Shown here in pieces: positions 8,693 through 62,143 of a DNA stretch of 64,000 nucleotides. Position 1 is the first letter of the stretch. The number at the start of each line of letters is the position of its first letter. The position numbers and the translations under genes were made by a program. The notes beneath the pieces were generated by a model. The model was given only the letters and a program-made list of their open reading frames with translations. It did no database searches and had not been told where the DNA came from. The DNA is from Eledone cirrhosa (taxonomy: Eukaryota). The stretch is from assembly GCA_964016885.1 (NCBI GenBank), contig OZ024754.1, positions 27,838,001 to 27,902,000 of the forward strand. The letters are read 5' to 3'.

Positions 8693-8832
8693 CTATATAC
8701 ATATATATAGGAGGTGAGTTTTATTGTAGTACAATAAAGCAATGCAGATATCGGATAAGAAGCACTCTACAGTTTGTAGGACTGGAGTATACATAATATA
8801 TAAGATCAAAAGATGGTTAAATGAGTTCCATG

Positions 8833-8903
8833 TATTTTATTATGCGCATTTCAAAAACAAATATCATCATGCAATAACATTTGTGTTTTCATCAGATAAA
8901 ATA
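8833..8903 (-). ncRNA. Type I hammerhead (family D)
   Basis: Inverted copy of 11499-11569; core intact. Confidence 0.85.
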
Positions 8904-9795
8904 GGAAGACATGATATGAAGGTTAAAAACACTTGTGGATAGTGCAGTTTTAAATCAACATATGAAAAGTAGTTTTAGATTGATGTGTGATATTGGGGAA
9001 ACATTTTTTTGAGGGGGGGGGGTGAAAAAGAGGAGGAGATGAGAGTAAAAAGTGGAGGGGGAGGAGTATAATGAGGAAGGATGAGATAGGAGGAGAGATG
9101 GATGATAGAGAGAGATAGCTAGCTTTTATAACTGAGAAAAATATATTGTTTTACATAGAGAGGTTGAAAAACCGTTGGAAGATAATGTATAAATTAAAAG
9201 AATTTGAAAATTAACGAAGAGAAAAATAATGTAAAGTTAAGGTTTGTATATTGAAGGGTTTAATAATATGTGCGATGAAAAGAAATTGTTAATATGTATT
9301 AAGAATAATATTTAAGGGTTTAATAATATGTGCGATGGAAAGAAAATGTTGATATATATTATTAAAAAAACAAAAGTAATGTAAGTAAGGATATATTGTG
9401 AGATGAGCATGAATAAGTTAGATGAAAGTGAGAAAAAAATAATGAATAGAGGATGAATAATCTAACGTCAAAAAAAAAATGTTTATGTTTACGAAGGATT
9501 TTTTCAAGGTGATATAAAGTAAGAATATATTGTACTGTGTAATAATTGTTTCTATGTTAGGCACAGTGAGAAAAGGTGCAGATTAGGGGTTAGAAATTAA
9601 AAGAAAAAGAAAAGAAAAGGAAAAGGAAGAAAAGGAAGTGATAAATAGGAGTGATATAGAATGAGTAACAAGTATTATATAATGTATAATAAATAACTTT
9701 GAAATAAGGTAGAAAGATGGGTATATTTTTAAAGAAGTATATATATATATATGTGCCTTTGAGAAAAGGATTCTGAATTGATAAAGTTTAGGATA

Positions 9796-10440
9796 TTAGC
9801 TGTATACTTTATGGAAAGTTCTGTGGAATTTATGCAAGCAGATAGAAAACAAGTCAGTGCGTCTATTTATTATAGAATCTAAATTAGATATAATGGTAAA
9901 TTTTTCATTTAGACAGAGATTGCAAGTCTTGGATAGAGAACTGTTCAAGTATGAGGACGCAGAAGAAACCTTTTTCCAAGAGATGTTATATTTAATATTT
10001 TTGTCTTTCAAGGACCATATGAGTTCTGAGAGAGCCGTATTGGTTCTTTTAAGCTGGTATTTAAAAGACGAATGATGATTATAAAGACGAGCTTTAAAGG
10101 AGGTGGAAGTGGAGCCAAAATAGGTGATGGAATTGGTGTCACTTATAACTTTACATTCGTAGATTAAGTTTTTATCAAGACAATGGTTGTTGAGAGGACA
10201 TTTATTTTTAGCAGGGCAATTGCAATTGCGATTAGAGAGATTATTAACGAGTGACCTAGTGTTATCTATAGAAGGAATTGGATTGGAGAAGTTATTTGCG
10301 ATAGGAATAATAGTTTCTTGATTTAGAATGGGATTAAGAACATTTAGTGAAGTTGTGTTTGACGTTGTATTTGGGTTTGCAGAAATTAGCCTAGAGTTTA
10401 CAATGACGTCGGGAGTACTATTACTATTATTATGATATTG
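9796..10440 (-). pseudogene. PLE linker plus Zn-knuckle and GIY-YIG endonuclease C-terminal fragment
   Basis: CNCPAKNKCPLNNHC...LIYECKV...YFGSTSTSFKARLYNHHSSF...LIWSLKD...CNLCLNEK...CLHK. Confidence 0.85.
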
Positions 10441-11498
10441 AACAGTTCTCTATCCAAGACTTGCAATCTCTGTCTAAATGAAAAATTTACCATTATATCT
10501 AATTTAGATTCTATAATAAATAGACGCACTGACTTGTTTTCTATCTGCTTGCATAAATTCCACAGAACTTTTCATAAAGTATACAGCTAATATCCTAAAC
10601 TTTATCAATTCAGAATCCTTTTCTCAAAGGCACATATATATATATATATACTTCTTTAAAATATACCCATCTTTCTACCTTATTTCAAAGTTATTTATTA
10701 TACATTATATAATACTTGTTACTCATTCTATATCACTCCTATTTATCACTTCCCTTTCTTCCTTTTCCTTTTCTTTTCTTTTTCTTTTAATTTCTAACCC
10801 CTAATCTGTACCTTTTCTCACTGTGCCTAACATAGAAACAATTATTACACAGTACAATATATTCTTACTTTATATCACCTTGAAAAAATCCTTCGTAAAC
10901 ATAAACATTTTTTTTTGACGTTAGATTAATCATCCTCTATTCATTATTTTTTTTTAAATTTCATCTAACTTATTCATGCTCATCTCACAATATATCCTTA
11001 CTTATACATTACTTTTGTTTTTTAAATAATACATATCAACATTTTCTTTCCATCGCACATATTATTAAACCCTTAAATATTATTCTTAATACATATTAAC
11101 AATTTCTTTTCATCGCACATATTATTAAACCCTTCAATATACAAACCTTAACTTTACATTATTTTTCTCTTCGTTAATTTTCAAATTCTTTTAATTTATA
11201 CATTATCTTCCAACGGTTTTTCAACCTCTCTATGTAAAACAATATATTTTTCTCAGTTATAAAAGCTAGCTATCTCTCTCTATCATCCATCTCTCCTCCT
11301 ATCTCATCCTTCCTCATTATACTCCTCCCCCTCCACTTTTTACTCTCATCTCCTCCTCTTTTTCATCCTTTCCAACCTCCCCCCCCCCTCAAAAAAATGT
11401 TTTCCCCAATATCACACATCAATCTAAAACTACTTTTCATATGTTGATTTAAAACTGCACTATCCACAAGTGTTTTTAACCTTCATATCTTGTTTTCC

Positions 11499-11569
11499 TA
11501 TTTTATCTGATGAAAACACAAATGTTATTGCAAGAGAATATTTGTTTTTGAAATGCGCATAATAAAATA
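11499..11569 (+). ncRNA. Type I hammerhead (family D)
   Basis: uauuuuau-CUGAUGA-aaacacaaau...auuuguuuuu-GAAA-UGCGCA-UA^-auaaaaua; perfect 8-bp stem I; palindromic stem III. Confidence 0.9.
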
Positions 11570-11619
11570 CATGGAACTCATTTAACCATCTTTTGATCTT
11601 ATATATTATATATATATTG

Positions 11620-11760
11620 AAAGGATAACAAGGACGTTTGGTTACTCCTTCATTACATTTATTGGTAGGTGACGCACGTTTCGCCACTGATGAGCTCAAG
11701 GTTCGATCTGTATCGATCTTACCCGACTCAATAAAATAACCCGACCCTTTAAAATGGTAT
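11620..11760 (-). mobile_element. Solo pLTR fragment of PLE 1 family
   Basis: Matches 445-590 (ggtgacgcacgtttcgccactgat.agctcaaggttcgatct); HHR core segment missing. Confidence 0.75.
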
Positions 11761-59935: not shown

Positions 59936-60230
59936 CAATAAAAATCTTTTGATGTCGTAGACGCTCTTGTGTTCTTTATCATATATACGGCTCTGCTCCA
60001 AAGCATAGAGCTAATTATTATGCTGTCAATACCTTAATGGGACACGGGTATACAATACCTAACTCCTATTAACCTAAGTATATATATATATATATACATA
60101 TATATATATATACATATATATATATATATATATTCATATATATACATATATATATATATATATATATATATATATATATATATATATATATATATATATA
60201 TATATATATATATATATATACATATATAGA

Positions 60231-60525
60231 TTCAAGCAGCGTCTTTACATGCATACCCATTCTTTTCGTTACCCTCTAAGAAGGAATATGACGTCACTTT
60301 CAGCTTATATCTGGAGTCTAAAAGACAACCACACCCAATATAAGTTACACTAGCTAGGGCTAGATCGTATAACGGAAATAAAAGACCATGTGACCTCTGC
60401 GTCGCTGAAGCCCTGGAAATACTCTACGCCACAGACCACATCTTAAACAAAAAATCTGAGGCAATTTCGGCTTGTAAACATAAATTGCACAAAACTTTCC
60501 TGTATTACAGCCCCACATTATACCC
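60231..60525 (+). pseudogene. PLE GIY-YIG C-terminal fragment
   Basis: [14 protein letters not shown]...[10 protein letters not shown] / RPCDLCVAEALEIL...ILNKKSEAISACKHK. Confidence 0.8.
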
Positions 60526-61144
60526 TAACGGATAGTACGATCTATACGTGGATATTTTACGTCTTGATGTGGTAGCTAAGTATATGTTATGTTTATACCT
60601 TTACTTATTTGCATAGGTAAGTATATATTTCTGTATGTTTTGTGAACGTACGTATACTTTCTCGTACGTATATTTGATTGTATATGTTATGGCGTATAAT
60701 TTTATATATTCTGGTACATATAGTTTGGTTATGTGTATACGGGAGTTTTGCGTCTGTGTGAGTATGCGGGTTCGTACGTATGTAGGGTGTGTGTATATGT
60801 GTACTTCATGTTTTGGTTGACGTACGTCTCCGAACATTTGTGTATTTACAATTAGGCATGTGTGTGCGCTTGTTATATACGTATTTATTTATTTATATAC
60901 GTTTATTTAATTATTTATTTATTTGTATACACGCACACACACACACACACACACACACACACACACATATTTATATGTGCGTGGTTTTGTATACCTATGG
61001 CAAGTGTTTTCGCGTATGCTTGTGTATGTACGTATTTGCATGCGTGTATGTATTTATTTAATTTCTATTACCTCTGTATTGTATTTTATTTACTTTATTC
61101 TTAACTCTGAAGCGGAGATTCATTCGGTTTCCTAGTTAGAATTT

Positions 61145-61410
61145 TAGTCTACAACTTCAGCTATACCATTTACGTGGCTTTGTCTTTGCGTGCAATTGTT
61201 CTCCACGCTCCTCATATGACGTTTATCTTCGTTTTTTTCCGTTCATTGCCAGAGAACGTCTCTATGAACCACCTAAGGGAACATTAGTCTACGACTTCTT
61301 TTATACCATAAACGTGGTTCTGTCTTTGCGTGTAATTGTTTTTCACCGCTCCTATTAATGACGTATTATATTCGTTTTTTCCTGTTCTTTGCCAGGGAAC
61401 GTTTCCACGA
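61145..61410. repeat. ~140-bp tandem duplication
   Basis: tagtctac.acttc...tgtctttgcgtg.aattgtt...ttgccag.gaacgt occurs twice. Confidence 0.75.
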
Positions 61411-61493
61411 ACCAAAGTATGGTCTTCCTGTCTTCCTCCGGTTGCAACGTTTTTTGAAATATCCACTTCTGCGTTTACAGATTGACTTTGTAA

Positions 61494-61541
61494 TTTCAGA
61501 AGATCCTGTTAAGGGTGAAAGCAGCGATGCTTTGCTTAAAC
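61494..61541 (+). ncRNA. Variant hammerhead-like motif (family L)
   Basis: uuu-CAGAAGA-uccuguuaagggu-GAAA-gca...ugc-UU^-aaa. Confidence 0.45.
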
Positions 61542-61713
61542 TTTAATATGTTATTTTAATAAATAAATATATATATATATATATATATATATATATATAT
61601 ATATATATATATATATATGTGTGTGTGTGTGTGTGTGTGTGCGTGTATATATATATATATATATATACATATATGAGAGTATTGAAGTTTGCTTGAAGCA
61701 TTGTGGAATAATA

Positions 61714-62143
61714 GGTAAATATCTTTAAGTCGTTTGGAAGCCTCTACAATGCAAATGGGTAAATCTCCGGGTAACAAGATCCGGTGGTGGAGAGAGAGAT
61801 GTAAGTGGGTGTACGTTGAGATGCGTGGTGTGTATAAGACGTGTAGAAGAATGAAGGAAAGAGTATAAAGGATAAAATAAAAATAAGGAAAAAACCCCCA
61901 GTTGATGGATGTGAATCCGAAATATATAGGGACAATTAAATCTCTCCCAAGGTAACTCTCTCTCGTGTTCTTATTTTTACTTTATCCTTTATACCCTTTC
62001 CTTCATTCTTCTACACGTCTTATACACACCACGCATCTCAACGTACACCCACTTACATCTCTCTCTCCACCACCGGATCTCGTTACCCGGAGATATACCC
62101 ATTTGCATTGTCGAGGCTTCCAAACGACTTAAAGATATTTACC
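61714..62143. repeat. ~175-bp inverted repeat between TA tracts
   Basis: 61714-61887 inverted at 61970-62143. Confidence 0.85.

Follow-up and report, generated by a model that had tools for sequence, protein, structure and literature searches.

How do Penelope-like elements (PLEs) come to lie head to head, with both 3' ends facing outward into TA repeats? The question is raised by a 64,000-nucleotide stretch of the Eledone cirrhosa genome (GenBank assembly GCA_964016885.1, contig OZ024754.1, positions 27,838,001 to 27,902,000; hereafter the window, with coordinates counted from its first letter), in which a sequence-only reading had noted eight pairs of inverted arms and ascribed them to PLEs inserting into (TA)n, either by twin priming or by snap-back. 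We consider it likely that each end of a cut TA repeat primes its own reverse transcription, starting at one of two set sites on the element RNA, and that the resulting copies are joined while still unfinished. The argument is built on what can be read directly from the insertions, namely their layout, two fixed 3' ends, the rule of one long and one short end per insertion, the free 5' extent of the arms, TA homology at the ends, and microhomology at the centre.

Comparison of the window with itself recovered all eight pairs where they had been noted, with ungapped arm identities of 98.9% (832-1989/3813-5039), 98.7% (8788-9948/10438-11614), 93.7% (16623-16843/18341-18561), 100% (19182-19550), 98.3% (49672-50862/51432-52602), 96.8% (56186-56339/56656-56811), 95.7% (58838-59030/59152-59359) and 97.1% (61714-61887/61970-62143). 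Six further inverted pairs were found at 5395-5587, 13677-13877, 18710-19006, 27851-28013, 58468-58730 and 26291-27222. In seven of the eight original pairs, (TA)n lies immediately outside the short arm and, on the opposite side, outside a tail of 38-105 nt, so that the description of most pairs as (TA)n-bounded is correct. The exception is 832-5039, where the right arm ends ca 490 nt before the 3' end and abuts the tail-less arm of another family. The outward orientation of the 3' ends holds as well; it is given by the strand of the open reading frame (ORF) in four of the structures, and for the other families by homology (H4 to H2, H5 to H1), by read-through copies (H7) or by analogy (H6 and B).

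Within each family the 3' ends were found to be bimodal, with a long, tail-bearing end and a short, tail-less one. Tail-less ends that abut (TA)n do so at one base in 32 of 36 cases in family A, 14 of 14 in H4, 9 of 10 in H2 and 6 of 6 in H1, while 8 of 12 in H3 fall at two adjacent positions. The earlier suggestion that the short arm stops at an internal TA(T) is thus half right: TA microhomology is present there, but the stop is a fixed family site and not simply a handy TA. Past the long end, read-through copies of A, H1, H2 and H7 show TAT, ATAT or AT, and both putative start sites carry TA homology to the target.

The two ends are not combined at random. A sample of 118 10-kb stretches, taken at round positions of the 3.0-Gb genome (three of them flanking the window), was scanned with profiles of eight families and of a control repeat that we take to be short interspersed element (SINE)-like. 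Its 48 head-to-head pairs comprise 37 that combine a long end with a short one, one long with long, one short with short, and nine that are unclear. Since 37 of the 39 classifiable pairs are long with short (p = 3e-9 against free choice), the target ends do not choose their start site freely. Across all loci, a set that favours long arms, the 122 joints divide into 88 long with short, three long with long, one short with short and 30 with an odd or split end, and one additional long-with-long pair is present at locus L218.

A possible signal for these sites is a small hairpin, RCTC-loop-GAGY-RCT. A strict pattern locates it at 5 of 13 ends, against a background of 0.6%: A has it past both its long and its short end, H1 and H2 past the long end, and H5 past the short end. 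A looser pattern occurs past the short end of H2, H4, H1 and one H3 copy (four of four rechecked), and the motif GAGT[GA]CT is a strand of this hairpin.

Of the other routes to such a structure, the one that survives best, improbable as we judge it, is a published one: based on palindromes at inverted joints, it was proposed that PLEs prime themselves on an antisense transcript, and that the resulting hairpin DNA or RNA-DNA intermediate is then integrated (PMC3846280). Many A, H2 and H4 copies are indeed near-perfect hairpins. However, the joints vary from copy to copy, most long copies lack a palindrome, and the two outer ends correspond to start sites on sense RNA like those mapped in vitro (PMC11167929). 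Non-overlapping arms would, moreover, require a second priming regardless.

The extent of the arms bears on snap-back, which had been offered as an equal alternative to twin priming. Here, a cDNA begun at the long site would fold and copy itself back, and would be joined or cut at an internal TAT, so that only one side keeps the tail. This explains the duplication of the arm, the microhomology at the centre and, among the 88 long-with-short pairs, the 17 in which the tail arm reaches further 5' by at least 25 nt and the 44 that are even. The structure 339-5039 can be read in this way, as can a few short stubs that lie inverted within the long arm (L211, L238, L245), and a tail generated by endonuclease resolution of an intermediate has been suggested (Craig et al. 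2021, PMC8557442). However, snap-back cannot yield a tail-less arm with sequence that is absent from the tail arm, and in the other 27 pairs it is the tail-less arm that extends at least 25 nt further 5'; one of them is 61676-62143, where the loop sequence belongs to the tail-less arm. Neither can it yield arms without any overlap, found in six of the 88 pairs and in more of the random-sample scan, nor single tail-less arms, of which the random samples contain 19. In the same samples the tail-less arm extends further 5' in 10 pairs and the tail arm in one, with 15 even (p = 0.012). Since snap-back does not allow a tail arm whose 5' extent is less than that of its partner, it is excluded as the general route, and we give it little chance of being the main one; it may, like chance TA priming, act as a minor route. 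The further reach of tail-less arms, the non-overlapping arms and the single tail-less arms imply instead that each arm was primed separately, and the proposal that both broken target ends prime is supported in this way by free arm extents as well as by the two fixed ends.

Equally hard to sustain is an opportunistic priming of the LINE-1 (long interspersed element 1) type, in which the second end would anneal at any internal TA(T), aided by the self-complementary target. In its favour, six of eight reference copies have an alternating TA run of 3-5 nt at the short site, and of 15 odd-ended joints that were inspected, three or four abut (TA)n at other TA sites. However, the last 200 nt contain other TA runs (ca 7-17 in most families), some of them longer, that are almost never used, and the arms mostly overlap, unlike those of LINE-1 twin priming. 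Nor does the layout require a self-complementary (TA)n, to which the sequence-only reading had traced it, since it is shared by PLEs that use other targets and have target duplications of 8-10 bp (PMC3846280).

Finally, it is very unlikely that the structures are artefacts of assembly, that the host made them by later fold-back at (TA)n cruciforms, or that two insertions occurred independently in one TA run: although inverted units of PLEs are a known difficulty in assembly (PMC8557442), the arms of 19182-19550 are identical and one joint (16843/16846) is unbridged, the arms differ by 1-6% in seven of eight pairs and age independently, the ends are family-fixed, most joints have no TA remnant, short-read contigs show like joints (the one from 8963 to 11439 in 10-11 contigs, with (TA)n past 11617 in 37-50), and the control repeat is head to head in only 2 of 223 copies.

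The independent ageing is best seen in H3, where paired arms have 4 shared and 106 private changes, and where the arm-to-arm distance (0.068) is similar to that from an arm to other copies (0.066). Later fold-back or homogenisation is therefore excluded, and the sequence comparison indicates that the H3 arms were made at insertion and then aged apart. At the centre, 22 of 38 insert-free asymmetric joints have 2 nt or more of microhomology and 16 have 3 nt or more, against 16% and 5.6% in the null; a few rows of this set are internal or spurious joints. Some of the centre inserts duplicate adjacent sequence, and such repeats also arise in polymerase-theta end joining. In A, H2 and H4, both arms often have the same 5' stop (ca -136 in A, within a hammerhead-like motif, and ca -255 in H2), for example at 5395-5587, 13677-13877 and 27851-28013; these recurrent stops are possibly RNA 5' ends.

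The twin priming that we favour can be described as follows. The GIY-YIG enzyme would cut both strands of the (TA)n target, and each broken end would start its own cDNA, one at the long site and one at the short. A signal in the RNA, for which the RCTC..GAGY hairpin located a few bases downstream from either site is the probable candidate, would set the start, and a pairing of 2-5 nt of TA with the target would assist the priming. The centre would then be closed by host microhomology-mediated end joining, and priming at one end only would give a plain single arm. As to the template, we lean only slightly toward one RNA that is read again with strand displacement over two RNAs held on a dimer. 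The pairing rule and the further reach of the short arm favour the former, while arm overlap, the rare long-with-long pairs and one join of two different families favour the latter. Shared variants cannot separate the two cases, because both arms share subfamily variants in A, H2 and H4. The join in question (L259:4084-6499, and again in L266) places an A long arm head to head, within at most 2 nt, with another Hydra element (RWK, DKT; reverse transcriptase (RT) 48-53% identical); if it arose in a single event, two different RNAs would have primed the two ends. One can also speculate, with more doubt than confidence, that a dimeric RT-endonuclease cuts (TA)n on both strands and starts two cDNAs on one RNA at hairpin-marked, TA-homologous sites, that the trailing enzyme displaces the leading cDNA, and that the element thereby needs no second-strand synthesis of its own at either end; the hairpins left in the genome, on the order of 10^5, would then be one of the chief sources of the double-stranded RNA underlying octopus hyper-editing.

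It is important to note that several observations weigh against programmed twin priming. At the short site of H3 there is no more than 1-2 nt of TA, and the hairpin was not found in H6, H7 or B. Besides those abutting (TA)n at another site, the 15 inspected joints (of the 30 with odd ends) include several whose odd-ended arm lies wholly within the long arm. The 44 near-symmetric pairs are, taken alone, compatible with snap-back, and 37 of the 75 asymmetric joints had inserts or aligned poorly and were excluded from the microhomology count. The 16843/16846 joint is unbridged in all four short-read contig sets X1, X2, X4 and X6, which is uninformative. For the families considered here the reading is drawn from genomic sequence, and in vitro the PLE Poseidon displayed neither a strand difference in start site nor homology to the target (PMC11167929). 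As a separate observation, one arm at L232:4227-4475 combines a piece made up of tail alone with a TA spacer and an internal fragment of the ORF, which suggests re-priming from TA.

How common is the inverted outcome? The sequence-only reading had called it the usual one, which is an overstatement. In the sample, a strict count gives 48 head-to-head pairs and 70 single arms among 118 insertions, or 41% (interval 32-50%). Adding five pairs split by profile envelopes and three short partners found by eye, in a check that covered 27 of 40 single arms, gives 53-56 of 113, ca 50%; the rows of H7, whose profile had a wrong loop, and of B, whose long end is uncertain, are weak. Best-hit loci, which favour long copies, were inverted by eye in 19 of 30 cases for A, 20 of 30 for H1 and 23 of 30 for H3. 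A family-blind census confirmed that TA is enriched over background: in 50 of the 189 local inverted repeats of the random samples, (TA)n closely adjoins one end and lies no more than 120 nt from the other, where 4.4% would be expected, and 31 of these 50 fall outside the eight defined families. Inversion is thus common, at about half of the insertions, and not universal. The density of ca 41 pairs per Mb for the eight families extrapolates roughly to 120,000 per genome. Octopus has an unusually high double-stranded RNA potential (PMC5625713), which such ready-made hairpins could help to explain, as a candidate link.

The assignment of the elements to PLEs with a (TA)n target is supported by ORF motifs and by the long ends, which abut (TA)n in 85 of 93 cases in A and 44 of 52 in H1 by a strict pattern, with some loci counted twice. 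RT and, at the C terminus, a GIY-YIG domain share a single, frameshift-broken ORF in H1 (L221, L223), A (L253) and H3 (window, L242, L243). DKT replaces DKG in H1, A and H3, and H1 has RWR, the RWK region being seen in H1 only among A, H1, H2 and H3. By eye, the GIY-YIG translations of H1, H2, H3 and A have the CxCX5C linker, CxxC and CxH, with CCHH absent; the motifs were compared with section 11 of PMC8557442 and with the alignment rows of Hydra-1_Obim, which the H3 translation resembles. The Pfam match of H2 to GIY-YIG is weak (E 0.025), and a Pfam scan gave no match to the PLE RT pieces. Judged from these translations, the ORF-bearing families H1, H2, H3 and A are Hydra-clade PLEs. Their insertions have the layout of endonuclease-containing PLEs, with an inverted 5'-truncated copy and a one-sided tail, and a partial tandem, or pseudo-long terminal repeat (pLTR), lies upstream of the ORF in the window (3688-3801) and in L251, L267, L209 and L274; any target-site duplication would be masked by the (TA)n. 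H4 is similar to the 3' end of H2, and H5 to that of H1. In 4 of 19 other copies, H7 reads through past its tail and enters the start of an ORF, and as this start looks different, the family may belong to another clade than Hydra; H6 and B are assigned by layout alone. A miniature inverted-repeat or other DNA transposon is ruled out by the one-sided tail, the variable joints and the single arms. A genome search with the H2 3' end, by a method that skips common words, gave no match.

A hammerhead pattern search found the full motif in H2, a core variant in A and none in nine other reference copies. Among the 150 of 188 Rfam matches listed there is no hammerhead, and those listed are otherwise simple-repeat miRNA-like matches and one tRNA-like match, at 14-69 (-) with a score just at threshold. 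Hammerhead cleavage was rejected as the cause of the short end in A and H2, since the predicted cuts lie near -98 and -132 and the ends at -78 and -79, respectively.

We now give the individual insertions in the window. The H1 long arm (339-3680, -) has its 3' end at 339 in (TA)21, a long 3' untranslated region (UTR) and a frameshifted RT ORF (RWR, DKT, YRDD), and lacks ca 1.54 kb (thumb and GIY-YIG) that other H1 copies have. The partial upstream pLTR (3688-3801, -) shows, in RNA order past the long end, ATAT, the hairpin and the ORF. The inverted H1 arm (3799-5039, +) spans family positions -1650 to -494 and ends at neither a short site nor (TA)n, which may reflect snap-back or later loss. 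It is followed by the tail-less arm of a family-B relative (5040-5370, +) that ends at (TA)14. Family A forms hairpin insertions at 5395-5587 (long arm left, short arm stopping at -78), 13677-13877 (short arm left, long arm right) and 27851-28013, a single non-inverted long arm at 8555-8704 (-) and a single tail-less arm at 58214-58310 (-). Its largest pair joins a tail-less arm (49672-50860, -), stopping at -78 (TTCCTAT), to a long arm (50863-52680, +) that has the end of a GIY-YIG ORF, a UTR, a 78-nt tail and a hammerhead-like motif, the cut of which is predicted near -98. A 17-nt inverted copy of the A short end lies across the (TA)n adjoining this short arm (49635-49690), and the A 3' UTR contains a piece of SINE-like repeat (50329-50374, 51923-51968).

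The H2 long arm (8709-10437, -) carries a GIY-YIG ORF end (CxCX5C, CxxC, CxH) and an 80-nt tail, its tail-less partner (10438-11614, +) stops at the family short site, and an H1-type single tail-less arm (11614-11763, -) sits within the TA at the end of the latter. In H3, a tail-less arm (16623-16843, -) faces a long arm (16846-18596, +) with a broken RT-GIY-YIG ORF, 3' UTR and a tail, of which ca 30 nt are deleted, the tail being ca 66 nt across the family. H4 forms pairs at 18710-19006 and at 19092-19566 (182-bp perfect arms, 5-nt loop, tail left), and a third that is followed by tandem 52-nt short-end copies (58468-58833). At 58678-58841, three such copies (99% identical) extend from an internal ATATA run as far as the TA target, and the tandem may stem from post-insertion slippage or reiterated priming. 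Inverted and tandem arms of family B occupy 26291-27624. H5 occurs as a single tail-less arm (39508-39676, +) flanked by two (TA)n runs, and as a pair (56184-56897; short arm left, long arm right) whose centre of ca 300 nt (56342-56639), possibly captured sequence, has no clear ORF and no match among the sequences compared. The H6 pair (58838-59464) has its short arm left and a long arm at 59044-59464 with a tail of ca 105 nt, and a single non-inverted PLE arm with a GIY-YIG fragment is found at 60229-61568 (+). In the H7 pair (61676-62143), the tail arm is on the left (61676-61887) and the tail-less arm, holding the loop, on the right (61887-62143).

Outside the PLEs, a cluster of the SINE-like repeat (43864-44907; four tandem copies and one inverted) is unusual, the repeat being rarely head to head. 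A LINE AP-endonuclease ORF lies at 62320-63859 (Pfam Exo_endo_phos_2, E 2e-7), and the 3' part of a decayed LINE-like RT region (6017-8054) recurs inverted at 52782-53119, 45 kb away.

The elements, the inverted copy and the one-sided tail are already known, and the layout is published. Hydra-clade PLEs, to which Hydra-1_Obim belongs, nearly all target (TA)n (Craig et al. 2021, PMC8557442), and they share with the present families RT plus C-terminal GIY-YIG, RW[KR], DKT, CxCX5C, CxxC and CxH without CCHH. They are described as "generally short" (PMC8557442), under ca 3 kb, which is not a strict criterion; H1 (ca 4.85 kb) and A (more than 3.25 kb) are longer, owing to 3' UTRs of 1.4-1.9 kb. The tails here are mostly 55-105 nt against 30-40 nt in that clade, and H4, H5, H6 and B are linked to no ORF. 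The head-to-head layout with a tail at a single end is the same as in PMC8557442 (Fig. 2) and PMC3846280, whose passages on it give no frequency, no long-with-short rule and no comparison of arm extents. Endonuclease resolution (PMC8557442) and antisense self-priming (PMC3846280) have been proposed for it, and the origin of the inverted ends and one-sided tail is an open question in PMC8557442 that was left unvalidated in PMC11167929. In titles and abstract openings, a coverage that older subscription Penelope papers fall outside, no twin-priming rule for PLEs was found. What appears to be new is the quantitative case both for a programmed priming of the two ends, at fixed sites with TA homology, and against snap-back as the principal route. 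The counts give sharp predictions, namely that each target end uses one start site, that arm length is free, and that each site has TA homology and a hairpin signal.

In LINE-1 twin priming, the second target strand primes internally, the centre is joined by short microhomology, and some of the halves do not overlap. The internal site is opportunistic there, whereas here it is fixed and the arms mostly overlap into long hairpins, with non-overlap in only 6 of 88 pairs. The closest biochemical counterpart, with which the favoured reading agrees, is the target-primed reverse transcription of Poseidon PAc in vitro, in which both target strands are nicked and then extended, the two internal start sites delimiting the tail (Frangieh et al. 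2024, PMC11167929). On the favoured reading, both systems cut and extend both strands and have two internal RT start sites bordering the tail. In Poseidon, however, the start sites lack target homology and are used alike by the two strands, whereas in the present families they have TA homology and each is used once per insertion.

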